The notes under the pieces were generated by a model. It searched no databases and had not been told where the DNA came from. It saw nothing but the letters and a program-made list of their open reading frames with translations. The translations under genes were made by a program, and so were the position numbers. Shown here in pieces: positions 49,086 to 64,000 of a stretch of DNA of 64,000 bases (its first letter is position 1; every line of letters begins with the position of its first letter). The stretch is from Spirochaetia bacterium (GTDB lineage Bacteria; Spirochaetota; Spirochaetia; UBA9216), in contig CAXXYH010000003.1 of NCBI GenBank assembly GCA_963677925.2, positions 224,001 to 288,000 on the forward strand. Direction: 5' to 3'.

Positions 49086-51305
49086 TTATTTAGAAAAAAG
49101 TTCAGAACTATATTGTTTTATCTGCTCCTTACCCTGAAGAACTCTTACTGCACCCGCAGCAAGGGCATCCATTTCGTTTTCACCGGGGTAAACTGTTACT
49201 CCGCAGTTGAGCTGATTAATGATTCCTTCAATTTCAGAAACAAGAAAATCACTCCTGACCATACCGCCTGTAAGAATTACCTGCTCGACGGCCTCGCCGT
49301 TAAAAGCCGGGAGTAAAGAGCATATTGCCTTTGCCGTCTGATATATAAGAGCTTCAATAACCGTTTCTGCAAAGGCGTCGGTCTTTGCCTGTTCAATAAT
49401 TTCTCTCAAATCTGTAGTTCCAAGAAGATCATAGAAACCGCCGCCTCCGACATTCAGAAACCTGATCTCCTTTTCGCTTAATCTGCCTGAAAAGCACAGA
49501 TCTATCAGCGCGCCGGCCGGTATAGTACCTGATCTCTGGGGAGAAAAGGGGCCCTCCCCGTTCAGAGCGTTGTTTACATCTACATAACGTCCCCTGTGAT
49601 GAGCACCTATCGAAATGCCGCCGCCCATATGACAGACAATCACATTAATATTTTCATAAAAAGTCTCATTCTCATACGCGTATCTTCTGGCAGAGGCAAT
49701 CTGATTCAAGGCATGGCTGATAATTTCTCTTTTAATACTTTTTATTCCGGTTATCTTAACCCTGTCATCAGCTTCATCGACAACTACGGGGTCTGTTATA
49801 AAAGCAGGGACATTGCTGCCATTTGTAAGAGACTCAGCTATTATTCCTCCTAAATTTGATGCATGTTCCCCGCTTATTCCGGCTTTTAAATGCTGAAGCA
49901 TGAGATCATTCACAGCGTAGGTTCCATGAGGGATTGGCTTCAGAAGGCCTCCTCTGGCCGATACGGCATCAAGGTCCTTAACAGAGTAGCCATTTTCAGT
50001 CAGAAAATTTACAACCATCGTCCTGCGGTATTCAAACTGAGAAGTTACAGGTTCGTTTTCAAATTCTTTAAGTTCTTCAGGTTTGTGCTGCAGTTCTTCT
50101 GAAAGGATCTGATATTCTCCTTCATACAGACTAACCTTTGTCGAAGTAGAACCCGGATTAATGGACAGGATCCTGTACATCGGGAAAAAATTATCCTGCG
50201 GAGTCTTTTTCCAATCCTCTTTCTGAAGTAAATTCAGCATGGTGGCTTTAATAGCAAGACGTATATCATCAGCGCTGCAGTCCTTGGCCAGATCAACTGC
50301 AGAAAAACCTATTCCGGAAATTATGGTGAATTTCTTGGCATCAGGGAAACGTGTGGCATAAAGATGATACAGCATATTCCCCATATCAAGGTTGGGACAG
50401 ATAATTACATTTGTACCACCCTGCCAGTCTTTCTCTCCCGGCTTGCTGTAATACATTGCAGATCTTTCAGACAGGGCAACATTGACCTTTACCTCACCTT
50501 CAATGTTTATTGTTTTATACCGTTGATCTTTGAGAATATATTCTTCGAGCAGGCCAGGAACCAGGGAAGAGGCCTTATTTACAAGTACAGGTGAAGGCCC
50601 TTCATCCGAGCCGTGATTGGAATAGGAAACAATTGCTCCATTGATATTTGAAAGAACATCTTCAGGAATAATATTTCTTGTAATAGTGCAGATATCAACA
50701 GCAAGATTTGCCAGTGTTTCTTCATCCATTGTCGCATTAACGCCGACATCTCCAAAGACAATTATGTTTTTTGGAAAAACCTTCTCTGAATGCTCATCAG
50801 ATAAAACAAAAATGCCGGTTTCACACTGAACTTTTCTTTTTTTCAGATACTTCAGCATCGGTCTGAAGAAAGTTATCGGTTCATGAGTTATTCCGCCTAC
50901 GACCATATCTGCATATCCGAATTTAACACATAGAATTCCAAACAGGCAGGGATCAGAAACTGCAGATCTTATTTCCTCTGTCGTTTTCCGGCTTCCTTCA
51001 GATTCTAGCTGACCTCTGTAAAAATGACAGAATTCATCAAGAATACCATGTTCAGAGGCAATATTTATAAATCTTGATTCCGAAATTGTAAACTCTACCC
51101 TGCTGCGGTCTATGGCAGCCGCCTCATTCTCATATAGAGAGCGAATCCGTTCTTCAGACTCCAGCAGAACAGGTTTTATATACCTGCATAAGTATGAAAC
51201 GGCCTCAAGTACTCTGATATCAACAGATTCTGTGAAGATAACCACCGGTCTTGAGCGGTTAAACGAAAGTATCTGCTGTTCAAGCGATTTTTCTATATCA
51301 AACAT
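49086..51305 (-). CDS. buk: Phosphate acyltransferase-like domain fused to butyrate kinase
   Basis: N-terminal half Pta-like (ESVDIRVLEA, GDVGVN, SYSNHGS, PNLDMGN); C-terminal half INPGSTSTK, RGGLL, HASNLG, DPVVVDE, HALNQ, HMGGG, PGENEM. Confidence 0.9.
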   Translation of the reverse strand: MFDIEKSLEQQILSFNRSRPVVIFTESVDIRVLEAVSYLCRYIKPVLLESEERIRSLYENEAAAIDRSRVEFTISESRFINIASEHGILDEFCHFYRGQLESEGSRKTTEEIRSAVSDPCLFGILCVKFGYADMVVGGITHEPITFFRPMLKYLKKRKVQCETGIFVLSDEHSEKVFPKNIIVFGDVGVNATMDEETLANLAVDICTITRNIIPEDVLSNINGAIVSYSNHGSDEGPSPVLVNKASSLVPGLLEEYILKDQRYKTINIEGEVKVNVALSERSAMYYSKPGEKDWQGGTNVIICPNLDMGNMLYHLYATRFPDAKKFTIISGIGFSAVDLAKDCSADDIRLAIKATMLNLLQKEDWKKTPQDNFFPMYRILSINPGSTSTKVSLYEGEYQILSEELQHKPEELKEFENEPVTSQFEYRRTMVVNFLTENGYSVKDLDAVSARGGLLKPIPHGTYAVNDLMLQHLKAGISGEHASNLGGIIAESLTNGSNVPAFITDPVVVDEADDRVKITGIKSIKREIISHALNQIASARRYAYENETFYENINVIVCHMGGGISIGAHHRGRYVDVNNALNGEGPFSPQRSGTIPAGALIDLCFSGRLSEKEIRFLNVGGGGFYDLLGTTDLREIIEQAKTDAFAETVIEALIYQTAKAICSLLPAFNGEAVEQVILTGGMVRSDFLVSEIEGIINQLNCGVTVYPGENEMDALAAGAVRVLQGKEQIKQYSSELFSK

Positions 51306-53015: not shown

Positions 53016-54488
53016 TTAATTCTGCATACTCTCATATATCCTGATATATGCTTCAGCAGATTTCTCCCAGTCGAATCTTTTTTTCATAGCAGCCTTTCTC
53101 ATTTTTGTTATATGAGGTCGTCTGTTTTCCCAAGTATCAACCACCCAGTGCATTACATTGTACAGGACCTCCGGGTTTATATCATCAAAGACAAAGCCTG
53201 TACCGCTGCCGGTTTCCTGATCGTAATTTTCAACAGTATCCGCTAAACCTCCTGTAGAACGTACAATCGGCAGAGTTCCGTAGGAAAGAGAATATATCTG
53301 GTTCAGACCGCAGGGTTCGTAAATACTCGGCATCAGAAAGAAATCTGAACCAGCCTCGATCAGGTGCGCCAGACGGTTGTTAAATCCTATATATACAGAT
53401 AAATTGGGAAGCCCGTCTGCCAGGCTGTTGAGTTCATCTTCACACCACCGGTCTCCGCTTCCGAGGAGCACAAACTGTACATTCATGCTGCTGCAAATCG
53501 AATACAGAGATCCGTAATTCGGTGCGCATAGTTCCTTAAAGCCCTTCTGCTCTACCAGTCGGCTTATCATTCCAACCAGAGGCACTTTCGGATCAATCTT
53601 CAGTCCCATTTCCTTCTGCAGGAGTTTTTTAACAGACGCCTTATTTTTCAGTGAATCGGCACTGAAATAATCAGGTTCGATGTACTTGTCCTTTTCCGGC
53701 GACCAGACATCGTAATCAATGCCATTCAGAATGCCATGCAGGTCTTCATGTCTGTAATTAAGCAGACCATCCATATTGAAACCGTGTTCAGGGCGTTTAA
53801 TTTCCTCAGCATAATTTGGAGAAACTGTTGTAATTTTGTCCGCAGTAATTATTCCTGATTTAAGGAAGTTCAGTGCCCCCGAAAACTCAAGTGCCGAAAG
53901 ATTCAGGCGGTCCGTCTCCTTTTGCAGGTAGACAGCATCCTTAAGATCGAAGATTCCCTGATAGCCCAGATTGTGAATGGTCAAAACACTTGAAGTTCCG
54001 GAGAATTCTGTAGCCTGTTCTTCTTTTTTGAGCAGGTAGCATGCGGGTGCTGACGGCCAGTCATGACAATGCAGAACATCGGGAATCCAGTGAAGCATTC
54101 GGCAAAGCTGAAAGGCGCCCCGGGAAAGAAGTGCAAAACGGGCTGCATTGTCCTTAAAACCCTCGTCCGGTCTGTGACCGTAGATGCCGTCACGTCCGTA
54201 GAAGCGCTCATGATCAAGAAAATATACCGGAACTTCAGAACCCGGCAGGACCGTTTCATAAACAGCGGTCCATTCTTCACCATGTCCAAGCCATATCCCC
54301 AGGGCTTCATCATGTTTTTTGAGCTCGGATCGGTCAATATGATAATATCTGGGCATTATGATTCTTACGTCATAACCAAGTCTTTTCAACTGAAGTGACA
54401 GTTCTGTAACGACCTCAGCAAGCCCTCCTGTTTTTGCAAAAGGGATAGCTTCGCTTGAAACCATGAGTATTTTCTTTACTTCTTTCAC
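53016..54488 (-). CDS. glgA: Glycogen synthase (GT5, ADP-glucose type)
   Basis: KTGGL, HCHDW, TIHNLGYQG, SRLVEQKG, EPCGLNQ; GTG start 54488 behind GGAG. Confidence 0.95.
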   Translation of the reverse strand: MKEVKKILMVSSEAIPFAKTGGLAEVVTELSLQLKRLGYDVRIIMPRYYHIDRSELKKHDEALGIWLGHGEEWTAVYETVLPGSEVPVYFLDHERFYGRDGIYGHRPDEGFKDNAARFALLSRGAFQLCRMLHWIPDVLHCHDWPSAPACYLLKKEEQATEFSGTSSVLTIHNLGYQGIFDLKDAVYLQKETDRLNLSALEFSGALNFLKSGIITADKITTVSPNYAEEIKRPEHGFNMDGLLNYRHEDLHGILNGIDYDVWSPEKDKYIEPDYFSADSLKNKASVKKLLQKEMGLKIDPKVPLVGMISRLVEQKGFKELCAPNYGSLYSICSSMNVQFVLLGSGDRWCEDELNSLADGLPNLSVYIGFNNRLAHLIEAGSDFFLMPSIYEPCGLNQIYSLSYGTLPIVRSTGGLADTVENYDQETGSGTGFVFDDINPEVLYNVMHWVVDTWENRRPHITKMRKAAMKKRFDWEKSAEAYIRIYESMQN

Positions 54489-54502
54489 ATACAGCTCCGG
54501 TT

Positions 54503-56131
54503 TTATTCTTTTATCAGTAATGCAGCGACTCCGCATTTTCCCAAATTAACAATAAGATGCTCATTTACATATTCGGTCTGTGCATCCAGAGCATATATTA
54601 ACTTAAATTCAGGTATATGTCCTGCTGAAAAACTTTGGGGTGAATTAGTGTTGAAATTAGCTGCAAGAAGAATTTTTCTGCCGGTTTTGCTGTCAGTACG
54701 CTCACAGATTATCAGGCTGTCATTACCGGTTTCAATAAACTTGATATTTCCGCCCTTACGCAGCAGCGGCTCCGCTGAGAGGATACTGTTAACAGATTTT
54801 ATAAAATCGGTTAAATCAAGTTCACCGCTTAAATCAACCTTTCCCTGGTAACCGATAAACTCTACCTTCCTGGGGTATCCGTTTTCAAAGCCCTGAACTG
54901 CTCCGGACTGACCTGTGCCCATAAGTGCACAGCAGAAATACCTTGGAATCGAGGATAATGCTGTCCCGAAAAGCTGTGCAGCCGCGCCGGTGTCATGTGA
55001 AGTAGGCTGAATCATGTAACGGAGAGTATCCCTGCTGTCATGGATGAACTGAAAATATTGCTGAAGTCTCGGAGCAAAGGGCTGTTCCCAGGTATTTGCC
55101 GTCAGAAGGTTCAGTCCAAGTGATGAAACCCCTTTTATAAGATCTTCATCTGAACCAAAAAATTCAGAAAGAATAATAATTCCAGGTGAAAACTTCCGCA
55201 GACGGTGAATAAACCATTTTATAAATTCCATATTGGATGAATGCAGATTATCAAGCCGGATTACAGCACCGCATTTCTCAACCTTTTTAACCCAGAAAAG
55301 AACATATGAAAGCATGTATTCATAGATATCATGTTTTATTTTTTCAGCGGGATGATCATAATTGATTAAAACCAAATCCTCCCAGGAAATCCAGCTGTTC
55401 ATATGCCAGCAGCCGGCCCTTTTCAGACCGTCAGCGCGTTCCTTATCAGAAATAAACCAGTGGCCGTTGGTTCTTGTAAGTTCATTCTGATCACTTAAAT
55501 GGTTTAATACAATGTCAAAGCATATTCTGATACCATTATCTGCCGCCTTTTGGGCAAAAAGTTCAAAATCAGCTTCATCGCCCCGATATCCGGGATCGAG
55601 TTTAAACAGATCCGCTGCAGCATATGGACTTTGAGAGGGTCCCATAGCTGTGAATGGAAGTATATGAACCGCGTTAAAACCAAGATCAGATATTTCATCC
55701 AGTTTTGCAGTCCAGTCAGCTATGGTTCCTGATACAGTTGGTATAAGCGTATACATCCGCAGGTTGTGCATAAAATCAGGATCAACAAGAAGACGGTGGT
55801 AATCTCCGGGTTCCCAGAAGGCGTCATGCCCCTGTACCATGAAAAAGCGGAAACTGAAAAAACCTCCTTTCGGGAGATCTATTGAAAGTGTATAGATACA
55901 TGGGTCTTCATTTTTTTTAAATTTAATCCTGCCCCACTGAGTTTCAGGAAGATCAGTATGGATGTAAATCTCATCTGAATCAGGAGGCTGCTGAAATTCA
56001 AGCTGAAGTATCAGTTCTGAAGAACCTGTTACCCTGTTAAAATCTTTAACAGGGTTCAGGATTCCATCCATATCAGATATTTCAAACTTCCAGTTTCTTA
56101 TACTGGTTAGAACACAGTTATTTTTTAACAT
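54503..56131 (-). CDS. GH13 protein resembling the glucanotransferase half of eukaryotic glycogen debranching enzyme
   Basis: GFNAVHILP, SPY, DIVLNH, WEDL, RLDNLHS, SEFFGS, SHDT. Confidence 0.7.
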   Translation of the reverse strand: MLKNNCVLTSIRNWKFEISDMDGILNPVKDFNRVTGSSELILQLEFQQPPDSDEIYIHTDLPETQWGRIKFKKNEDPCIYTLSIDLPKGGFFSFRFFMVQGHDAFWEPGDYHRLLVDPDFMHNLRMYTLIPTVSGTIADWTAKLDEISDLGFNAVHILPFTAMGPSQSPYAAADLFKLDPGYRGDEADFELFAQKAADNGIRICFDIVLNHLSDQNELTRTNGHWFISDKERADGLKRAGCWHMNSWISWEDLVLINYDHPAEKIKHDIYEYMLSYVLFWVKKVEKCGAVIRLDNLHSSNMEFIKWFIHRLRKFSPGIIILSEFFGSDEDLIKGVSSLGLNLLTANTWEQPFAPRLQQYFQFIHDSRDTLRYMIQPTSHDTGAAAQLFGTALSSIPRYFCCALMGTGQSGAVQGFENGYPRKVEFIGYQGKVDLSGELDLTDFIKSVNSILSAEPLLRKGGNIKFIETGNDSLIICERTDSKTGRKILLAANFNTNSPQSFSAGHIPEFKLIYALDAQTEYVNEHLIVNLGKCGVAALLIKE

Positions 56132-58562
56132 GGCAGGGCTTCAGGTTCCATATGTCTCCGGCATACTCATCTATTGTCCTGTCTGAAGAAAATTTTCCTG
56201 CGCTTGCAATGTTAATCAGTGAGGATTTCAGCCAGGACTCACGGTCTCTGTATTTGATTTCAACCAGTTTTTGCGCATCGATGTAGGCCGGCAGATCAGC
56301 AAGATTCATATAGTAATCATAATCCATAAGGTTTTTTATCAGCTGATCAAAAATTCCAGGTTCACTGATATTGAAAAATCCGCTGTTCATGAGCTTGAAG
56401 ATTTCAGCTATCTCCGGGTAATTGAGAAGATAGTCTACCGGTTTATAACCGTTTCTTTTTTCAGTTACTTCCTCTGTTTTCATTCCGAAAATGAACATAT
56501 TCTCTTCACCGGCTTCCTCAACAATCTCTATATTTGCACCGTCAAGAGTTCCCATGGTAAGCGCCCCGTTAAGCATGAACTTCATATTGCTCGTACCGGA
56601 AGCCTCTGTTCCGGCTGTGGATATCTGTTCGGAAATTTCTGCTGCCGGAAAAATCTTCTCAGCCAGTGAGACGCTGTAATTCGGAAGGAAAAAGACCTTC
56701 AGCATTTCATTTACTTTTCGATCACCGTTAATAACATGGCTTACATTATTTATAAGCTTTATTATCATTTTGGCCATATCATAGCCCGGAGCAGCTTTTC
56801 CGCTGAAAATAAAAGTTCTCGGATATATTTTTTCCCCGGATCTTATCCTGTTATATAAAACTATAATATGCAGAACATTAAGCAGCTGTCTTTTATATTC
56901 ATGTATACGCTTAACATGAATATCAAAAATTGATTCAGGGTCCATTATGAAACCGAATTCTTTTTTACAGTGCGCAGCAAGATCAATCTTGCCCTGTTTT
57001 TTAACCTGATCAAGTTTTTCAAGGAATGCACTGTCATCGACGTGCTTTTTAAGCCCCTTAAGTTCCGAGAGATTTGTAATCCAGCCATCCCCGATACTCG
57101 AGGTAATCAGCTCGGAAAGCGGTTTATTTGCCTTCCGCAGCCATCTGCGCTGAGTTATTCCGTTGGTTTTGTTATTAAAACGCTCGGGAAATATTTCGTA
57201 GAAATCCGGAACAAGCCGTTCTTTAATCAGTTTTGAATGAATTTCCGCAACACCGTTTACCGAATGTGAACCCAGGATTGCGAGAGGAGCCATTCTTATC
57301 CTTTTTTCACCATGCTCTTCTATAAGTGAAAGCCGGGAAAGTTTCCCCATATCGCCCGGATACATCCCTGTGACCTTCTGCAGAAAGAAATGGTTAATCT
57401 GGTAGATTATCTCCAGATGACGCGGCAGAAAGCGTTCAAACATGCTTACAGGCCATGTTTCAAGGGCTTCAGGCATCAATGTATGGTTTGTATATCCCAG
57501 GCAGGCTCTTGTGACATCCCAGGCTGTATCCCAGTCAATTTCTTCGATATCTACAAGAATACGCATCAGTTCCGGAACTGCAATTGCAGGATGGGTATCA
57601 TTAAGCTGTATTGCCATATAATTACTGAGGTTCTCTATAGGCTCATTAAGGCGCTTGAATCTTCTAAATATATCCTGCATTGAAGCACTCACGAAGAAAA
57701 ACTGCTGCTTGAACCTCAATTCCTTACCCGAATAAATTGCGTCATTGGGATACAGAACCTGTGTCAATGTTTCAGCAAGAACTTCTTCATCAACTGTGTT
57801 ATAGTAATCACCCTGATTGAAAGCCTGAAAATCAAACTGTTCCGAACTCTTGGAATCCCAGAGCCGCAGGGTATTAACAGTATTCCCTCCGTAACCTACT
57901 ATAGGTGTATCATATGGAACACCGATTATATCATTGGTATCAACCCAGAAGCAGCGGCCTTTCTTGTTCCTTGCAACACGGCCGCCGAACTGAACTGTTA
58001 CCGGAATATCATTCCGCCTTATCTCCCATGGATTCTTGAAACGTAGCCAGTCATCGGCCTCCTCAACCTGGTAGCCGTTAACTATGGTCTGCTTGAAAAA
58101 ACCGTATTTATACCGCAGTCCATAACCGTAGGCAGGAAACTCCAAGGTTGCCAGCGAATCAAGAAAACAGGCGGCAAGTCTTCCAAGGCCGCCGTTACCA
58201 AGGCCGCTGTCAACCATTGCTGCACTTATATCCTCCCATTCAACACCTACTTCTTCAAGCATTGCATCAACTTCATTCTTTATCCCTAGATTGATCATGT
58301 TATTAGACATTGATCTTCCCATAAGGAATTCAAATGAGAAATAGTTCACAAATTTCGCTTTCTGTTCTTCGTGTGTTTTTTTGGAGGCAAACCACCGGTC
58401 AATTATTCGATCCCTTACCATAAAAGCAAGGGCAATATACTTGTCTGTACTGTGGCTGTTCTCAAGCTTCACAGCAAGGCTGTATTTTAGATGTTCAAGA
58501 AATCCCTGTTTGATTTCTTCGGTACTTATACCTTTTTCAGGTAACCCGTAGGTATTCTGCAT
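56118..58562 (-). CDS. glgP: Glycogen phosphorylase
   Basis: GNGGLGRLAAC, QLNDTHP, YTNHT, KRIHEYKRQ, EASGTSNMK; ATG 58562 behind AAGGAG. Confidence 0.96.
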   Translation of the reverse strand: MQNTYGLPEKGISTEEIKQGFLEHLKYSLAVKLENSHSTDKYIALAFMVRDRIIDRWFASKKTHEEQKAKFVNYFSFEFLMGRSMSNNMINLGIKNEVDAMLEEVGVEWEDISAAMVDSGLGNGGLGRLAACFLDSLATLEFPAYGYGLRYKYGFFKQTIVNGYQVEEADDWLRFKNPWEIRRNDIPVTVQFGGRVARNKKGRCFWVDTNDIIGVPYDTPIVGYGGNTVNTLRLWDSKSSEQFDFQAFNQGDYYNTVDEEVLAETLTQVLYPNDAIYSGKELRFKQQFFFVSASMQDIFRRFKRLNEPIENLSNYMAIQLNDTHPAIAVPELMRILVDIEEIDWDTAWDVTRACLGYTNHTLMPEALETWPVSMFERFLPRHLEIIYQINHFFLQKVTGMYPGDMGKLSRLSLIEEHGEKRIRMAPLAILGSHSVNGVAEIHSKLIKERLVPDFYEIFPERFNNKTNGITQRRWLRKANKPLSELITSSIGDGWITNLSELKGLKKHVDDSAFLEKLDQVKKQGKIDLAAHCKKEFGFIMDPESIFDIHVKRIHEYKRQLLNVLHIIVLYNRIRSGEKIYPRTFIFSGKAAPGYDMAKMIIKLINNVSHVINGDRKVNEMLKVFFLPNYSVSLAEKIFPAAEISEQISTAGTEASGTSNMKFMLNGALTMGTLDGANIEIVEEAGEENMFIFGMKTEEVTEKRNGYKPVDYLLNYPEIAEIFKLMNSGFFNISEPGIFDQLIKNLMDYDYYMNLADLPAYIDAQKLVEIKYRDRESWLKSSLINIASAGKFSSDRTIDEYAGDIWNLKPCHVKK

Positions 58563-58590
58563 AACCGCTCCTTGCGGCAAGGACTCTCCT

Positions 58591-60564
58591 TTATTTTAAC
58601 AGAGAGTATGCCCTTAATAATTCCCCGGTACTCCAGGCCTGTGCAAAGCATCCCTTTCCGTTTTCCGGCAGTAAACCGTCAAAGATTTCGGAAACATGAC
58701 CCACACCCTGCCTGTATAAATGCTTATCCAGAAGATTATCCAGATAATCACCCCAGAATTTTAATTCTTTTTTCTTATCTTCGCAATATAGAAGACTTGA
58801 TTCAACCATAATACCAATAAGCCAGGGCCATACAGTTCCCTGATGATACTTTGCATCCCTTTCATCAGAACTGCCTGAATATTCTCCCCTGAAGTCAGGA
58901 TGATCCGGAGATAAAGTTCTTAATCCCATTGGTGTAAGAAGTTTCTCTTTTACTTTTTTTATTGATGAAACCCTTATATCCCTATTTATCAGGCCCTCTG
59001 ATGCTGAGGTCGCAAACAGAAGATTCGGTCTAAGCTTGTGATCTGCAGCACCGTCAACACTGGTATCGCTTAGATAGCCGTCATTTTCGTTCCAGAATGC
59101 CTCTATAAAAGCTGCAGGGATTTTATTAATATATTCATCTGCATAGGCCGGAATATCTGATTTTATAATTCCGCAGAGCTTTTTAATAAGAATGAAGCTG
59201 TCATACCACATTGCATTCAACTCTACTGCATAGCCGTGTCTTGAGGTTACAGGCTTACCTTTGGATGTAGCATCCATCCAGGTGAGCTGAGTATTTTCGT
59301 TCCCGGTTGATATCAGGCCGCTGGAATCAAGCCTTGTTTCAGGTACCGCACCATTCAAAAATGCTTCCACTATGCTCGTGACTGCCTGAAACAGAACAGA
59401 ACGTATAAAAACCGCTTCACCTGGCTTATTACCGTATCCGAATTCTATAAGTTTCATAACCGCCCTGCAGTAAAGCAGACCTGCATCAATTGAATTGTAG
59501 GATGTGAAGCCCTGTGATTCACCGATGGTATTCGGAAGCATACCGTTTTTTATCATGCCTGCATAATCTTTCAGAACATCAAGACCCCAGGCAGTATTGC
59601 CATTACACCAGGTCAGCCCCGGAAGCGCAATCATTGTGTCCCGGCCCCATTCACCGAACCATGGATATCCGGCATTAACCGATTTTAGACCTGAGAAACT
59701 GCTTACAAGAAAATCCCCTGCACCCAATGAAAGAAGATCCTTATTTGTTTTAATGTTTTTTGCATACCCTATCTTTTTGGCAAGAATTTCACTGTATCCA
59801 GCAATCATATCTCCTCTATAGCTCTTATCTTCACCTGCTGAAACTTTTAAAACAAAAGGCTGTCCCTGTTTAAGGGTGATTTTTTCATGCCCGGGAACAA
59901 AGCGATCTTCCTCAAAATCCAAACCTCTATCCCGTTCAATTTCATATATAACATTATGATCCCAGTAAAAATCACCGAAATGAGCCCATTCTCCACTGAA
60001 TGAAACATTAACAGAAGGCAGTATTGAATAGGGCTGAATACTGTATCCGGTTTCATTGAAGCTGATATTATTTTTTAGAGCTTTATTTTCTCTGGTTGTA
60101 GTATGACTGTCGCGGAAGGTAAAAAGCAGCCTCAATTCAGCAGGTAGAGTTTCTGCACCTTCAATCAGCGTATATACAATGTATACAGAAGCTTCTTCTT
60201 CACGCATCAGTATCTCTTTCTTTAAAAGGACATCTCCGAAACTGTAAATCCATGTCGGTACAGGAAGAGTACAGAAATCTTTGATATATCCATATCCTTC
60301 CGGATACATCACTCCAGGATATATATTATTTCCAAGTCTGATTTGACTGCCGTTATTAATATTTTCCTCTATCGATGATAGAAAATGAATCCGCCCCTCT
60401 CTTCCCGGAAGGGTTGTAACAAGCAGTCCGTGATATTTCCTTGTATGGCAGCCTATGGCAGTGGAAGACGAAAACCCGCCCTTTGAATTTGTAATAAGCC
60501 ATTCTGATGTAAGCCCTTCAAAGGTATCGGGAACTATACTTTTTATTCTGTCTAATGGAGTCAT
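58591..60564 (-). CDS. Amylo-alpha-1,6-glucosidase (GH133-like)
   Basis: EWLITN..TRKYHGLL, AGYPWFGEWGRDTMI, TWMDA, GLRTL, YHQGTVWPW, QAWS; ATG 60564 behind GGAGG. Confidence 0.92.
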   Translation of the reverse strand: MTPLDRIKSIVPDTFEGLTSEWLITNSKGGFSSSTAIGCHTRKYHGLLVTTLPGREGRIHFLSSIEENINNGSQIRLGNNIYPGVMYPEGYGYIKDFCTLPVPTWIYSFGDVLLKKEILMREEEASVYIVYTLIEGAETLPAELRLLFTFRDSHTTTRENKALKNNISFNETGYSIQPYSILPSVNVSFSGEWAHFGDFYWDHNVIYEIERDRGLDFEEDRFVPGHEKITLKQGQPFVLKVSAGEDKSYRGDMIAGYSEILAKKIGYAKNIKTNKDLLSLGAGDFLVSSFSGLKSVNAGYPWFGEWGRDTMIALPGLTWCNGNTAWGLDVLKDYAGMIKNGMLPNTIGESQGFTSYNSIDAGLLYCRAVMKLIEFGYGNKPGEAVFIRSVLFQAVTSIVEAFLNGAVPETRLDSSGLISTGNENTQLTWMDATSKGKPVTSRHGYAVELNAMWYDSFILIKKLCGIIKSDIPAYADEYINKIPAAFIEAFWNENDGYLSDTSVDGAADHKLRPNLLFATSASEGLINRDIRVSSIKKVKEKLLTPMGLRTLSPDHPDFRGEYSGSSDERDAKYHQGTVWPWLIGIMVESSLLYCEDKKKELKFWGDYLDNLLDKHLYRQGVGHVSEIFDGLLPENGKGCFAQAWSTGELLRAYSLLK

Positions 60565-60565
60565 C

Positions 60566-62566
60566 TTATCCTCCGGGACTTGTCCTTCTGAAGACAAGGA
60601 CTGTCCTTGTCGGCAGGTAGGGAGTAATCCAACCGGAATCGCTTTTGTAATCTGCAGCTTTCAGTACAAGATTACCGGGGATCCTTCCATTACCATCGTA
60701 CTTTTCCGAATCAGAATCAAGAAGAAGATGATAACTTCCCGCAGGAACATTTATTCTGTAATCACGGTATGACTTTGTTCCGCTCATATTCACTATAAAA
60801 TACAGCTCTCCCCGGCTATAGGCAAGGACTTGATCATCTTCATGAAGACAAAGAAGAGTTGAATAACTGTTATTAAGAACATTGCTGCACTGATGCAGCA
60901 TATCTCCGGTAAATTCAAGTATTCTGCCGTACCTGAGGTCCCTGTTGGTGCTGAGAGACCATTGACGCCGGGCATAGTGATAACTCCAGCCGTTTCCCTC
61001 CCTTGGAAAGTCAATCCATTCAGGATGGCCGAATTCATTCCCCATAAAACACATGTAGCCGTCTCCGCCCAGGGAAAATGTCAGCATATTTATTATCTTT
61101 ATCAGGGCAATTCCACGGCTGACTGTCAGCGAATCAGTACCTATCGACATATCTGTGTACATGGCCGAATCGAGCATACGGAATATAAGTGTTTTATCGC
61201 CGACCAGAGCCTGGTCATGACTTTCAGAGTAAGCTATATGCTTTTCTGTGAATCTTCTGTTGTTAAGGACTCCCCAGATTTCGCCGGGACTCCACTGTTC
61301 ATCACTCTTTTCCTTGAGTATCTTAATCCAGAAATCCGGTATACCCATTGCCAACCGGTAATCAAAGCCGCAGCCGCCGTCTTCAGGAGCCCTTGCCATT
61401 CCAGGCATACCGCTCATATCTTCAGCTATACTGATAAAATCAGGCTTAATGCTGTGTATCAGATGATTTGCGAGAGAAAGGTAGCATACTGCATCTTCAT
61501 CGGTATTAGCACCGAAATATTTGTCATAGTTATCAAATGAAGCCCCCAGACCGTGATCATGATAGAGCATACTCGTTACCCCGTCAAAACGATAGCCGTC
61601 AATATGGTATTCTTCTATCCAGTAGACACAGTTTGAAAGCAGAAAATTGATCACATTGGTGTTTGAATAGTCAAAGCATCTTGAATCCCATGCCGGATGA
61701 TATCCGCGCGGTCCTTCATGAAAATACAGATATGGGGTTCCATCAAAGTTGCTCAGGCCCTCAAGCTCATTTTTAACCGCATGGCTGTGAACAAGATCCA
61801 TAATTACAGCTACACCGTTACGGTGACATTCATCTACCAGAAACTTAAAGTCTTCAGGCGTCCCGTATTTGGAACTTAATGCAAAAAAATTAGCAACCTG
61901 ATAACCAAAGGACCCGTAATAAGGATGTTCCATAAGGGCCATAAACTGAACAGTATTGAAGCCCGCGGAAATTATTCGCGGCAGGACATTCTCACGGAAT
62001 TCATTGAATGTACCTATACCGTAATGTTCAGCCGCCATTCCGATGTGGGCTTCATAAATAACCGGAGCACGGGGCGGGGTAAAATCTTTTACAGTCCATT
62101 TATATTCCTGCGCAGGGTTCCACATTCGGGAACAGTAGATGTAGGTCTGACTGTCCTGCTCAACCCTTGTGGCATAGGCTGGAATGCGGTCTCCTTCACC
62201 GCCCTTCCACTTAAGATACAGCCTGTAATAATCTCCGTGTTCAAGAACACCTTCAGGCAGTATGATTTCCCAGTCTCCGTGCTCATTCAGCCGGCTGAAA
62301 CGGTAATCATCCGAACATCCCCAGGATGTGCGGTCCGAAAGCAGATACATTTCAGTTGCATTAGGAGCCCATTCACGAACAAGAGTGTTCACACCCTGTT
62401 TATGCACTCCGTAATATTCAAATGATCTGCCGAATCCTTCAACACCTTCAAGCAGATGATGCTTCCTGTATTTATAAAGGTCAATTCGTTTCTGAATATC
62501 TCCGGCATACGGAGCGAGATAGGGGTCTTCCTGTATCAGCGGATTAAGAGGCGTATTGTTTTTCAG
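60566..62566 (-). CDS. glgB: 1,4-alpha-glucan branching enzyme (eukaryote/Bacteroidetes-like GH13_8 type)
   Basis: YGSFGYQV, YRFDGVTSMLY, AEDMSGMP, ESHDQALVGDKT, NEFGHPEWIDFPR; frame stays open upstream of GTG 62407 to a CTG at 62566. Confidence 0.93.
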   Translation of the reverse strand: MKNNTPLNPLIQEDPYLAPYAGDIQKRIDLYKYRKHHLLEGVEGFGRSFEYYGVHKQGVNTLVREWAPNATEMYLLSDRTSWGCSDDYRFSRLNEHGDWEIILPEGVLEHGDYYRLYLKWKGGEGDRIPAYATRVEQDSQTYIYCSRMWNPAQEYKWTVKDFTPPRAPVIYEAHIGMAAEHYGIGTFNEFRENVLPRIISAGFNTVQFMALMEHPYYGSFGYQVANFFALSSKYGTPEDFKFLVDECHRNGVAVIMDLVHSHAVKNELEGLSNFDGTPYLYFHEGPRGYHPAWDSRCFDYSNTNVINFLLSNCVYWIEEYHIDGYRFDGVTSMLYHDHGLGASFDNYDKYFGANTDEDAVCYLSLANHLIHSIKPDFISIAEDMSGMPGMARAPEDGGCGFDYRLAMGIPDFWIKILKEKSDEQWSPGEIWGVLNNRRFTEKHIAYSESHDQALVGDKTLIFRMLDSAMYTDMSIGTDSLTVSRGIALIKIINMLTFSLGGDGYMCFMGNEFGHPEWIDFPREGNGWSYHYARRQWSLSTNRDLRYGRILEFTGDMLHQCSNVLNNSYSTLLCLHEDDQVLAYSRGELYFIVNMSGTKSYRDYRINVPAGSYHLLLDSDSEKYDGNGRIPGNLVLKAADYKSDSGWITPYLPTRTVLVFRRTSPGG

Positions 62567-63846
62567 ATTGCGGTTCCATCCTGAAGAATCGCATTCTTAT
62601 GAATAATCAGAACTCCGTCAACTATATGATAATTTCCGTAATCGCCGTCCTTCCGCTCAAAATTATCTATACCTATACGGCAGTGAGCACCTATTCTGGC
62701 GTTTTTATCAATAATTGCCCTTTTGATTATTGCACCGCGGCCTATACCGACATTGGGAATATTCTTTTTTCTGTTTTCCTCAACCTGTTCAGGCGTTTCA
62801 TAAAAATCGGCACCCATACAATATACACCGTCAAGGGTGGCTCCGTCTGAAATTATTGTTCTTGCTCCGACAATTGAGTATGAAATTGACGCATCAGTAA
62901 TTATGGACCCCTCAGCTGCAAGAGACTGCTTGAATGTACAGGAATTAATTTTTGAAGGAGGAAGATGCCTTCGGTAATTATAAACAGGGGTTTCTTCATC
63001 GTAAAGGTTGAAGTTAGGTTCTATTGAAGCGAGGTTTATATTAGCCTCATAGAAGTTTTTAATAGTTCCTATATCCTCCCAATAGCCGTTGTATACATAA
63101 GATTTAACATTAAGGCTTTTTATTGCCTCAGGAATAATCTCCTTACCGAAGTCGGTAAAATCAGATTCCAGACACCTGTGCATAACATCAGCGTTAAAAA
63201 GATAGATACCCATAGATGCAAGATAATCCTTACCGGATTCCGGTCTTATTGAGTTACGTTCGGCAACCTCCTGGGGGATTTTATAATCATTAATATCCAG
63301 ACTGGGCCCGGGTTTTTCAAGAAACATATTGATTGTATTTTTTTTATCCGTCTGAAGGATTCCAAGTTCATTTGCATCTGTTCTTGTAACAGGGGTGGAT
63401 GCTATTGAAATCTCTGCACCCCGTTCCTTATGCTTATTCAGAAAATCTTTTAAATCCATCTTATACAGCTGATCTCCGGATAAAATCATATAATGAGTAG
63501 GCTGGTTGTCCGAAAACCGCTGAAGGTTTTTTCTGACCGCATCTGCAGTGCCCTCATACCATCCGCTGCTTGAATGAGTCTGCGAGGCTGCAAGAATTTC
63601 AACAAAGCCCTTTGAGAAAACATCAAACTGATATGCTCTGTTTACATGAAGGTTAAGCGACGCTGACTCAAACTGGGTAAGAATATATATCTGTCTAAAC
63701 CCGGAATTAATACTGTTTGATATGGCTATATCAATAAGTCTGTATTTTCCGCCGAAAGAAACCGCAGGTTTTGCACGTTCCTTTGTAAGAGGATAAAGCC
63801 TGGTACCCTTTCCGCCGCCCAAAATAATGATAATCACTCTGTCCAT
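62563..63846 (-). CDS. glgC: Glucose-1-phosphate adenylyltransferase
   Basis: GGGKGTRLYPLT..AKPAV..YRLID, GTADAVR, LSGDQLY, EKP, DFGKEIIP, YWEDIGT; ATG 63846 behind AAGGAG. Confidence 0.96.
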   Translation of the reverse strand: MDRVIIIILGGGKGTRLYPLTKERAKPAVSFGGKYRLIDIAISNSINSGFRQIYILTQFESASLNLHVNRAYQFDVFSKGFVEILAASQTHSSSGWYEGTADAVRKNLQRFSDNQPTHYMILSGDQLYKMDLKDFLNKHKERGAEISIASTPVTRTDANELGILQTDKKNTINMFLEKPGPSLDINDYKIPQEVAERNSIRPESGKDYLASMGIYLFNADVMHRCLESDFTDFGKEIIPEAIKSLNVKSYVYNGYWEDIGTIKNFYEANINLASIEPNFNLYDEETPVYNYRRHLPPSKINSCTFKQSLAAEGSIITDASISYSIVGARTIISDGATLDGVYCMGADFYETPEQVEENRKKNIPNVGIGRGAIIKRAIIDKNARIGAHCRIGIDNFERKDGDYGNYHIVDGVLIIHKNAILQDGTAI

Positions 63847-64000
63847 ATTCCTCTCCTTATATATGGTTATTATATAATGATGTTCCTGATTTTCGCAAAC
63901 CAACATTTGGTTAATAATTAAGATTATTTCCCTCTCTATTAAAATCTGCTGTATTTAGGTATACTCCTGTTTATGAAATTGAATTTTGTTGATTTAGGCA

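Follow-up and report, generated by a model that had tools for sequence, protein, structure and literature searches.

On balance, a glycogen operon of this Spirochaetia bacterium appears to encode indirect glycogen debranching in the eukaryotic style, with the work divided between two proteins. Reviews and structure papers regard indirect debranching as a eukaryotic mark and direct debranching by GlgX and MalQ as the bacterial way. The part of PMC12219210 consulted states that bacteria use separate enzymes. In a literature search outside subscription journals and CAZy, we found no description of a split bacterial system. The operon lies in the window, the whole stretch of 64,000 nucleotides that was analyzed, and comprises the following genes:

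53016-54536, minus strand: glgA, an ADP-glucose-type glycogen synthase (TIGR02095, 502 bits against a cut-off of 328)
54503-56131, minus strand: GH13c, a compact GH13 protein of 542 aa, the proposed 4-α-glucanotransferase half (Pfam, NCBIfam, an AF2 model, and trees)
56118-58580, minus strand: glgP, glycogen phosphorylase, 820 aa (PF00343, 1063 bits; TIGR02093, 1142 bits)
58591-60597, minus strand: GH133, an amylo-α-1,6-glucosidase of 668 aa with GDE_N and GDE_C domains, the proposed glucosidase half
60566-62407, minus strand: branching enzyme, 613 aa, with CBM48, GH13, and Alpha-amylase_C domains (Pfam)
62563-63906, minus strand: glgC, ADP-glucose pyrophosphorylase (NF002772, 584 bits against a cut-off of 537)

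Read along the minus strand, the order is glgC, branching enzyme, GH133, glgP, GH13c, glgA. As the sequence-only reading had proposed, the phosphorylase gene is flanked by separate genes for GH133 and the compact GH13, one on either side. The end of glgP overlaps the start of GH13c by 14 nt, and neighboring gene ends in the operon overlap or lie 10 nt apart in the ORF map; the genes are probably co-transcribed. Promoter and terminator scans of the operon returned matches at chance level. An end coordinate of 60564 given earlier for GH133 corresponds to an ATG at residue 12, and a TTG start extends the gene to 60597. The best solved relatives of GlgP were mammalian phosphorylases (940 bits). 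The branching enzyme is of eukaryotic type, scoring 584 bits against human GBE1 (4bzy) versus at most 199 bits for bacterial GlgB structures, and it fell under every bacterial GlgB equivalog cut-off in NCBIfam.

Since the operon holds relatives of both halves of the eukaryotic debranching enzyme (GDE), eukaryotic two-step branch removal is probable in the spirochaete. GlgP would trim outer chains down to limit dextrin, GH13c would act as a 4-α-glucanotransferase and shift the maltooligosyl stub onto another chain end, and GH133 would hydrolyze the remaining single α-1,6-linked glucose. The transferase activity of GH13c, its substrate, and the order of the steps are what we infer from sequence. 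Support for the scheme comes from predicted catalytic residues that are intact in both proteins, from the strict co-occurrence of GH13c and GH133, and from the absence of GlgX and MalQ.

The last of these points had been made earlier for the operon, from which glgX and malQ are indeed missing, and it holds for the genome as a whole (99.63% complete). The highest-scoring match to the GlgX profile TIGR02100 anywhere in the genome had 52 bits, far under the cut-off of 641, and was the branching enzyme itself, and MalQ (GH77, PF02446) had no matches at all. The direct route, both enzymes of which are thus absent from the spirochaete, performs the same task as the one proposed here, clearing phosphorylase limit dextrin, but it would release maltotetraose, whereas the proposed spirochaete route would release glucose. 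Elsewhere in the genome there is a GH57 protein of 668 aa with α-amylase/4-α-glucanotransferase middle and C-terminal domains, and the presence of this 4-α-glucanotransferase-like gene weakens the claim that GH13c and GH133 suffice.

The GH133 protein matched GDE_N (PF12439; 3.4e-60, 204 bits) and GDE_C (PF06202; 7.6e-92, 308.5 bits), the same two Pfam domains as other prokaryotic proteins of this kind; eukaryotic GDE has hGDE_central in place of the prokaryotic GDE_N. Against TIGR01561, the putative archaeal-type glycogen debranching enzyme, it scored 336.4 bits, under the cut-off of 364.15, making it a relative and not a scored member. Its solved relatives were eukaryotic GDEs only. It carries the (α/α)6 GDE_C domain that defines membership of GH133, and both predicted catalytic carboxylates, D442 and E637, are kept, in these motifs:

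59272-59283, minus strand: TWMD motif of GH133, in which D442 aligns with human GDE D1261 (eukaryotic GTWMD)
58675-58692, minus strand: SEIFDG motif of GH133, in which E637 lines up with the glutamate of the PELT motif in eukaryotic GDE

We take E637 to be equivalent to human E1502 from its alignment position among 48 GH133 sequences. In the part of PMC12219210 consulted, D1261 and E1502 have a catalytic role in the glucosidase domain of human GDE. Zmasek and Godzik 2014 (PMC4236520), in the portion consulted, call the function of the prokaryotic GH133 group unproven, and a section of PMC11046441 cites a Sulfolobus mutant with excess glycogen.

GH13c consists of an N-terminal β-sandwich (approximately residues 1-118), a (β/α)8 catalytic domain, and a C-terminal β domain. 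Its AF2 model had a pLDDT of 92.3 and matched many GH13 structures with Z of 33 to 39. It belongs to GH13 by its match to Alpha-amylase (PF00128, 1.8e-13), and it also matched hDGE_amylase (PF14701; 1.1e-17, 64.7 bits against a cut-off of 27) over residues 122-217 only, spanning profile positions 6-108 (103 of 439). The seven motifs from which kinship with the eukaryotic transferase had been read are all present in the translation, and the eukaryotic counterparts quoted alongside them proved essentially right, the GDEs we fetched showing DIVLNHT, R[LI]DN[CA]HST, AELFT[GN], and THDN. The positions in GH13c are as follows:

Residues 151-159, GFNAVHILP; 168-170, SPY; 206-211, DIVLNH; 250-253, WEDL
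Residues 292-298, RLDNLHS; 322-327, SEFFGS; 378-380, SHD
55235-55258, minus strand: GH13 region II, RLDNLHSS, residues 292-299 (translation; motif table)

RLDNLHSS, DIVLNH, and SHD in GH13c form the GDE-type signature, with RLDNCHST, DIVLNHT, and THDN at these places in 11 eukaryotic sequences. Residues D206, N210, H211, R292, D294, E323, F325, H379, and D380 were invariant across 39 family members. Among them, D294, E323, and D380 occupy the nucleophile, acid/base, and transition-state stabilizer positions of GH13 regions II, III, and IV. Seven of the invariant residues align with human GDE D215, N219, H220, R524, D526, E555, and F557; within region II, D294, the predicted nucleophile, lies in the segment aligned to R524/D526. 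The H379-D380 pair aligns with the His-Asp of Candida glabrata GDE (D670). The roles of the aligned GDE residues were taken from the part of PMC12219210 consulted. Both catalytic modules of eukaryotic GDE (AGL/Gdb1; GH13_25 fused to GH133), with their catalytic residues, are present here. GH13c has DxVLNH in region I, DNxHS in region II, AE[FL]FT in region III, and HD in region IV in common with GDE, as well as a glycogen phosphorylase context. The differences are that GDE is one protein and the spirochaete system two separate genes, and that GH13c lacks an insert of approximately 200 residues carried by the eukaryotic domain, its alignment to human GDE passing directly from residue 234 to residue 446. 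GH13c thus does not show the full-length eukaryotic domain with its insert, nor hGDE_N, hGDE_central, and GDE_C on one polypeptide.

GH13 specificity is not readable from sequence, and a hydrolase is one alternative. GH13c would then be, for example, an intracellular α-amylase, a maltogenic enzyme, or a stub-trimming enzyme that cuts limit-dextrin stubs or released oligosaccharides, with GH133 debranching independently. After the GDEs, the next solved relatives of the family profile were Thermotoga neapolitana AmyB (4gkl, 7.9e-17) and a Lactobacillus plantarum amylase (3dhu, 4.1e-15); VIA gave Z 37.8 and an rmsd of 2.5 to 3dhu, and in GH13c neither histidine nor any residue of the canonical GH13 triad is missing. 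We nevertheless regard a hydrolase as rather unlikely: the groups resembling AmyB and 3dhu (rows designated "short" and fused) fell outside the clade of family plus GDE in both trees, the DNxHS region II and AE[FL]FT region III match the transferases GDE and GlgE and not the sampled amylases, and 34 of 40 carrier genomes are without MalQ, which would leave the transferase role unfilled.

The bacterial family to which GH13c belongs spans at least 235 species genomes. PF14701 was matched by GH13c and by all 39 family members tested, in which GlgE_dom_N_S was found in 0/39 and hGDE_N in 1/39. The family profile, run against the PDB, hit human GDE (1.1e-25, 93 bits) and then C. glabrata GDE (1.8e-20, 76 bits) before other structures, with GlgE, at 58 bits, under both. 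Among matches in proteins of 950 to 2710 aa, 14 of 14 were eukaryotic, 13 being four-domain GDEs and one an hDGE_amylase-domain protein. In cross-HMM scoring, the GDE HMM gave the family a median of 71 bits versus 14 for GlgE. The family was sister to the eukaryotic transferase domain in maximum-likelihood (ML) trees of 74 rows (SH-aLRT 97) and 37 rows (UFBoot 98, SH-aLRT 97), which sampled only five other GH13 groups besides the family and GDE.

The sister relationship seen in the ML trees, in which GlgE lies outside the family-plus-GDE clade, is not statistically secure: the AU test did not reject grouping the family with GlgE (p 0.298, delta lnL 7.7), the outcome that the sequence-only reading had named as refuting it; grouping it with the bacterial GH13s of the fused and short rows was likewise not rejected (p 0.286). 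Profile-profile comparison preferred GlgE (hhalign score 215, E 6.5e-27, versus 167 and 6.1e-20 for GDE), as did Foldseek E-values and VIA Z (39 versus 35.6 for GDE), while TM and rmsd preferred GDE. An HMM of the N-terminal domain of GH13c alone had no matches in GDE or GlgE. Because the AU test keeps the GlgE grouping and the profile-profile and fold scores slightly favor GlgE, the family bridges GH13_25 and GH13_3, with GlgE and the transferase domain of eukaryotic GDE as its nearest relatives in these sequence and model comparisons.

These scores also bear on whether GH13c could be a GlgE-like transferase that builds glucan from maltose-1-phosphate or another activated donor, with a role in synthesis and not in debranching. 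GlgE was the top match in a single-sequence phmmer search (9.1e-12, residues 184-495) and by Foldseek (9.3e-35), VIA, and hhalign, and the two share a three-domain fold, a D-N-x-H core in region II, and E-x-F in region III. PVC-type clusters, moreover, place GH13c with a GT4/5 enzyme that is possibly GlgM-like, and some sources name related fusion proteins "starch synthase (maltosyl-transferring)." A GlgE-like role is nonetheless quite unlikely in our estimation. Neither GlgE domain, PF11896 (N/S) nor PF21702 (GLGE_C), was found in any of 39 family members at E ≤ 0.01, whereas all 120 GlgE relatives among the matches listed had both and none had PF14701. The histidines of regions I and IV are retained in GH13c but lost from GlgE, which has Q for NH in region I and PD for HD in region IV; in a comparison of 27 family rows with 15 GlgE rows, the GlgE motifs (region I without Asn-His, FRVDNPHTK, and TPD) were absent from the family. 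None of the GH13 proteins checked in the genome reached the TreS cut-off, the other three all falling under it and GH13c scoring only 41 bits. GlgC and a bona fide GlgA are already encoded in the operon, and the linkage in 40 of 40 genomes is with the degradative GH133. The motif and domain evidence supports a compact GH13 that is neither an ordinary amylase nor GlgE.

The distribution of the family is consistent with split indirect debranching. Of the groups sampled, this widespread family appears to be the one nearest to the GDE transferase, and its carriers mostly lack GlgX or MalQ. GDE_C was present in 40/40 carrier genomes from many phyla, versus 31/121 in a Spirochaetota sample, in which the four genomes with GH13c all had GH133 and were without GlgX and GH77. 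Among the 40 carriers, GlgX exceeded its cut-off in 2 and GH77 (MalQ) was found in 6; Syntrophus buswellii carries GH13c and has both. The glgC-GBE-GH133-glgP-GH13c-glgA operon is kept in 15 Spirochaetia loci. Gene-by-gene reading identified a second cluster, GH133-GT4/5-GH57-DUF3417 phosphorylase-GH13c, in two loci, Kiritimatiellae L078 and Nitrospirales L075, so in two types of operon the gene for GH13c comes after one for a phosphorylase. GH133 also lies near GH13c in three further loci, one from Planctomycetota and two Lentisphaeria-type, while 60 of 80 GH13c loci had no GH133 inside the flank fetched. The converse dependence does not hold: 27 of the 31 GH133-bearing Spirochaetota genomes are without the GH13c family, and 9 of these 27 also without GlgX and GH77, so GH133 does not need a GH13c partner.

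The same counts enter into a further alternative, that GH13c substitutes for MalQ on free maltooligosaccharides while branches are removed by GH133 alone or with the GH57 4-α-glucanotransferase-like protein. Weak GH77 Pfam matches occurred in 11 of 39 family members, GH77 is missing from most carriers, the genome has the GH57 protein with its AmyA/4-α-glucanotransferase domains, and of the 27 GH13c-less genomes, one that we inspected has its GH133 in a GH133-GT-GH57-phosphorylase cluster. Free oligosaccharides, however, come only from direct debranching, and in eukaryotic GDE the GH133 glucosidase domain works on stubs of a single glucose. The strict co-occurrence with GH133 and the conserved adjacency to phosphorylase also speak against a MalQ substitute, which we consider very unlikely.

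Whether GH13c and GH133 represent the unfused prokaryotic source of eukaryotic GDE, with indirect debranching an ancient pathway of bacteria that passed into eukaryotes and was fused there, is a separate matter, and we hold this origin to be possible but doubtful. The "pre-fusion" form suggested by the sequence-only reading finds backing for the GH13 half, whose sister group in the ML trees is the eukaryotic transferase domain, and none for the GH133 half. In the GH133 tree, proteins from GH13c-carrying genomes mostly cluster (18 of 24, support 99). The branch that carries the eukaryotic clade is 2.3 changes per column long, making this tree uninformative on eukaryotic origin. If the proposed origin were true, the eukaryote-type branching enzyme of the same operon would have been inherited along with the pathway, and the GH13c family would supply the prokaryotic root that GH13_25 has been missing, as well as the evolutionary link between GH13_25 and GlgE (GH13_3).

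Split indirect debranching, if true, would provide a testable prokaryotic version of the indirect pathway, a small and separable model of the two activities defective in glycogen storage disease III, and a handle on the origin of the eukaryotic enzyme. Two poorly annotated gene families would gain a function as well, many of their members having no name beyond "hypothetical protein" or "alpha-amylase family glycosyl hydrolase."

Some bacterial proteins of approximately 1400 aa, such as Sedimentisphaera salicampi WP_094758996.1, fuse a GH13 domain to GDE_N-GDE_C. These fusions join GH13 and GH133 in the eukaryotic order and keep the catalytic triad; they may be read as Rosetta-stone support for a GH13 working with GH133. 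The fused GH13 is AmyB/3dhu-like, has FRCDAGY instead of DNxHS, and forms a clade separate from the GH13c family.

Six tightly packed genes, called as open reading frames and assigned with Pfam and NCBIfam, occupy window positions 53016 to 63906 on the minus strand.

62563-63906, minus strand, glgC
60566-62407, minus strand, CBM48-GH13 branching enzyme (GBE)
58591-60597, minus strand, GH133 amylo-alpha-1,6-glucosidase (domains GDE_N and GDE_C)
56118-58580, minus strand, glgP (phosphorylase)
54503-56131, minus strand, compact GH13 protein of 542 aa
53016-54536, minus strand, glgA

Between adjacent genes there is either an overlap of 14 to 34 nt or a spacing of 10 nt; only glgC and the branching enzyme gene are further apart, with about 155 nt between them. 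Scans for promoters and terminators gave results at chance level (27 found versus 25.9 expected and 13 found versus 8.8 expected). The sequence-only reading, whose coordinates span the GH13, glgP, and GH133 genes, the last counted from its ATG, took the GH13 and GH133 for a split version of the eukaryotic glycogen debranching enzyme (GDE), in which a GH13_25 transferase and a GH133 glucosidase are fused, and for a candidate form from before that fusion. Each of the GH13 motifs that it quoted was found in the translation of the compact GH13 gene. The operon's branching enzyme is itself of the eukaryotic type, matching human GBE1 (4bzy) at 584 bits and rice BEI at 581 bits versus at most 199 bits for bacterial GlgB structures, and it scores under all bacterial GlgB equivalog cutoffs.

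We then looked at the other carbohydrate enzymes encoded by this genome (5.04 Mb, 4 contigs, 99.63% complete). Neither a GlgX above the cutoff nor any match to the GH77 enzyme MalQ, the usual bacterial direct debranching pair, was found in it, and GH133 gave one strong match. Three of its five GH13 genes lie outside the operon, two of them phosphotrehalase-like and one sucrose-phosphorylase-like, and none of these three proteins reached the TreS cutoff. There are also two clear GH57 genes, one of which is branching-enzyme-like. The other, on the minus strand of contig 3 at about 555.6 to 557.6 kb (L014:211-2217), encodes a 668-aa protein with alpha-amylase/4-alpha-glucanotransferase middle and C-terminal domains (PF09094 and PF09095); it is a possible competing candidate for a transferase step.

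To place the compact GH13, we compared it and its bacterial relatives with GDE, with the GH13_3 maltosyltransferase GlgE, and with ordinary amylases; the evidence is mixed. All 39 family members examined matched hDGE_amylase and one also matched hGDE_N; the GlgE N/S and C domains were matched by none. The 14 longer proteins matched were all eukaryotic, comprising 13 GDEs and 1 protein with an hDGE_amylase domain. Among solved structures, the family profile ranked human GDE first (1.1e-25, 93 bits) and Candida glabrata GDE next (1.8e-20), with AmyB (7.9e-17), 3dhu (4.1e-15), and GlgE (5.2e-15) further down. The human match ran from residue 8 through region I and, past the eukaryotic insert, picked up again at regions II and III. 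In cross-HMM comparisons, the GDE model gave a median of 71 bits for the family and 14 for GlgE, the family model 79 for GDE and 69 for GlgE, and the GlgE model 50 for the family and 13 for GDE. The region II motif is RLDNLHSS in the compact GH13, RLDNCHST in GDE, and FRVDNPHTK in GlgE, and GDE and the family retain Asn-His in region I and His-Asp in region IV, both of which GlgE has substituted.

Maximum-likelihood trees under LG+C20+F+G4 made the family sister to the eukaryotic transferase domain, both with 74 rows and 523 columns (SH-aLRT, 97) and with a hand-picked reduction to 37 rows and 507 columns (UFBoot/SH-aLRT, 98/97). GlgE, the AmyB/3dhu-like groups, and four GH13 proteins of the window's genome fell outside this clade. 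The trees exclude P0138, a GlgE-like protein lacking the nucleophile motif, and two eukaryotic GDEs whose N-terminal extensions are long (P0129 and P0134). Approximately unbiased (AU) tests on the 37 rows, however, rejected neither a tree placing the family with GlgE (P = 0.298) nor one placing it with other bacterial groups (P = 0.286), and the length of the eukaryotic branch (1.85) makes long-branch effects possible.

Several comparisons ranked GlgE ahead of GDE. GlgE came first in a single-sequence phmmer search with the compact GH13, and hhalign scored GlgE at 215 (E = 6.5e-27, 493 columns) versus 167 for GDE (E = 6.1e-20, 453 columns). The AlphaFold2 model of the compact GH13 (pLDDT 92.3, pTM 0.91) has an N-terminal beta-sandwich, a barrel, and a C-terminal beta domain. 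With this model, Foldseek gave E values of 9.3e-35 for GlgE (TMq, 0.68 to 0.72) and 1.8e-25 for GDE (TMq, 0.72 to 0.75), and VIA gave a Z score of 39 and an rmsd of 5.7 for GlgE versus 35.6 and 4.2 for GDE; fold comparison of a predicted model cannot separate the two. An HMM of the N-terminal domain (residues 1 to 118) matched no GDE or GlgE sequence. GDE and GlgE barely recognize each other directly (hhalign probability, 65%), and each recognizes the compact GH13 family well. The GlgE N/S domain was present in none of five carrier genomes (genomes with the compact GH13) and in 3 of 41 genomes sampled from the phylum of one carrier titled Polyangia. Our reading is that the family probably sits between GH13_25 and GH13_3, with the active-site motifs of GDE. 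The proposed kinship with the GDE transferase was favored by Pfam, the family profile, the cross-HMM scores, motifs, and trees, and GlgE by the hhalign, phmmer, Foldseek, and VIA rankings; the sister grouping with eukaryotic GDE was recovered, and the AU test did not reject the GlgE grouping.

A word-indexed search gave 316 relatives of the compact GH13 at an E value of ≤1e-5, and among the matches listed, all 120 carried PF00128 and PF14701. Searching 1.84 billion representatives with a profile yielded 137 proteins at an E value of ≤1e-30, and when one genome per species was scanned with a pattern, relatives were confirmed in 235 stretches. By title, the best 80 of these 235 were all bacterial and included Spirochaetia, Syntrophales (with the cultured Syntrophus buswellii), Planctomycetota, Kiritimatiellia, Lentisphaeria, Verrucomicrobiota, Fibrobacterota, Armatimonadetes, Polyangia, Nitrospirales, and Holophagae. 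The GH13 catalytic residues were unchanged throughout the family alignment (n = 39). Weak GH77 profile matches occurred in 11 of the 39 members (best, 6e-05), and genome-wide GH77 searches of carriers picked up these GH13 genes at profile positions 13 to 70.

Whole-genome searches found GDE_C above the cutoff in all 40 carriers searched, GlgX in 2, and GH77 in 6. The GDE_C match was full length in 38 carriers (E ≤ 1e-82), divergent in one, and interrupted by stops in another, where it lies in three pieces with two TGA stops and one TAA stop inside (G064:C11:144685-145788) and is possibly a pseudogene or the product of misassembly. Across 121 evenly drawn Spirochaetota genomes, the family was present in 4, GH133 in 31, GH77 in 49, and GlgX in 42, and all four carriers had GH133 and lacked GlgX and GH77. 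The 27 genomes with GH133 and without the family had GH77 in 16 cases, GlgX in 14, and neither in 9; the one of these 9 that we inspected has a GH133-GT-GH57-phosphorylase cluster. Thus, presence of the family predicts GH133, but the reverse does not hold. These counts are given without a P value because related genomes are not independent.

We surveyed the neighborhood of the family by searching the best 80 loci with six window proteins (tblastn, within the fetched flank). GH133 lay inside the flank at 20 loci, 15 of which had Spirochaet* titles and the same block, (glgC-)GBE-GH133-glgP-GH13(-glgA), with end genes missing on cut contigs and glgC after glgA in two loci. The other five came from Nitrospirales, Planctomycetota, Kiritimatiellae, and two Lentisphaeria-type genomes. 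Read gene by gene, the Kiritimatiellae (L078) and Nitrospirales (L075) loci contain GH133, a GT4/5 synthase, GH57, a DUF3417-type phosphorylase, and the compact GH13. The compact GH13 gene therefore follows the phosphorylase gene in two operon types with different synthases and phosphorylases. A Spirochaetota genome without GlgX, GH77, or the compact GH13 has the same cluster minus the compact GH13 (L116, G144:C1:204000-223000); the GH57 of this cluster type is about 400 aa. The remaining 60 loci, mostly from Syntrophales, had no GH133 neighbor in the fetched flank, some of the loci being short. Among Syntrophales and in several further groups, the gene for the compact GH13 lies away from glycogen genes; in S. 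buswellii (L049), the one such locus inspected, its neighbors are unrelated, a PAS/LuxR regulator on one side and an M29 peptidase on the other, and the genome has GlgX and MalQ.

The only solved relatives of the 668-aa GH133 protein were eukaryotic GDEs (human enzyme, 5.1e-15). Its D442 (TWMD) aligns with human D1261, and its E637 (SEIFDG) with the glutamate of the PELT motif in eukaryotic GDE. The catalytic pair of human GDE is given as D1261 and E1502 in PMC12219210, and we took E637 as the putative equivalent of E1502, matched by alignment position rather than by human numbering. In a GH133 tree of 48 rows, 18 of the 24 rows from carrier genomes formed one group (support, 99), with three Syntrophales rows nearby and one Armatimonadetes row apart. 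The eukaryotic clade sat on a branch of 2.3 and joined another long row (L117). Because of this long branch, and since the tree contains neither archaeal rows nor a GH15 outgroup, it carries no information on ancestry. The L117 row is a 1,501-aa protein (genome G192, L117:2708-7213, minus strand) with GDE_C at residues 280 to 650 followed by CBM48 at 844 to 923; GH133 is here joined to a possible isoamylase-type module, the eukaryotic order reversed.

What this analysis shows directly is which genes are present, their catalytic residues, and their linkage across genomes. By analogy with the eukaryotic enzyme, from which the order of steps is taken, GlgP would cut back the outer chains to a limit dextrin, the compact GH13 would transfer the leftover stub to another chain end, and GH133 would release the branch glucose. 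Gene content, motifs, and linkage to GH133 speak for such a split, GDE-like system, and the GlgE grouping left standing by the AU test speaks against it; we consider it the best reading, at somewhat better than even chances. The gene arrangement that the sequence-only reading described is confirmed, and its interpretation has partial support.

A literature search, supplements and CAZy subfamily lists aside, found no published description of the compact GH13 family or of a split system. Bacterial GDE_N-GDE_C proteins were described, and their function was called unproven, by Zmasek and Godzik in 2014 (PMC4236520); the available text of that paper makes no mention of a free-standing bacterial hDGE_amylase protein. 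A 2024 review (PMC11046441) lists archaeal clusters that contain GH133, as well as a Sulfolobus mutant, and a 2025 paper on human GDE restates that the enzymes are separate in bacteria (PMC12219210). In papers on the storage polysaccharides of protists, the debranching enzyme is regarded as eukaryotic (PMC7965971; bioRxiv 10.64898/2026.09.25.754361).

Our search of representatives also found bacterial proteins of 1,385 to 1,489 aa in which a GH13 domain at the N terminus precedes GDE_N and GDE_C, the eukaryotic domain order (P0367, P0374, P0375, P0378, P0380, P0386, P0390, P0391, P0400, and P0402). Named examples are WP_094758996.1 of Sedimentisphaera salicampi and Acidobacteria MAG proteins, including PIE91403.1. 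They run counter to a statement from 2016 that bacteria have no such fusion. Their GH13 domain, however, is AmyB/3dhu-like, has FRCDAGY where the family has DNxHS, and forms its own clade in both trees; they are not a fused form of the compact GH13 family. Their domain content lends support to the idea that GH133 may work with a GH13 partner. Two further proteins of about 1,110 aa (P0335 and P0341) carry a short AmyB/3dhu-like GH13 domain (residues 3 to 386, also matched by hDGE_amylase) ahead of a complete GlgE with its N/S, catalytic, and C domains. Finally, a 739-aa open reading frame at window positions 49086 to 51305 (minus strand) has a phosphate acetyl/butyryl transferase domain (residues 17 to 349) and a partial acetate kinase match (550 to 687) and may be a Pta-AckA-like fusion.
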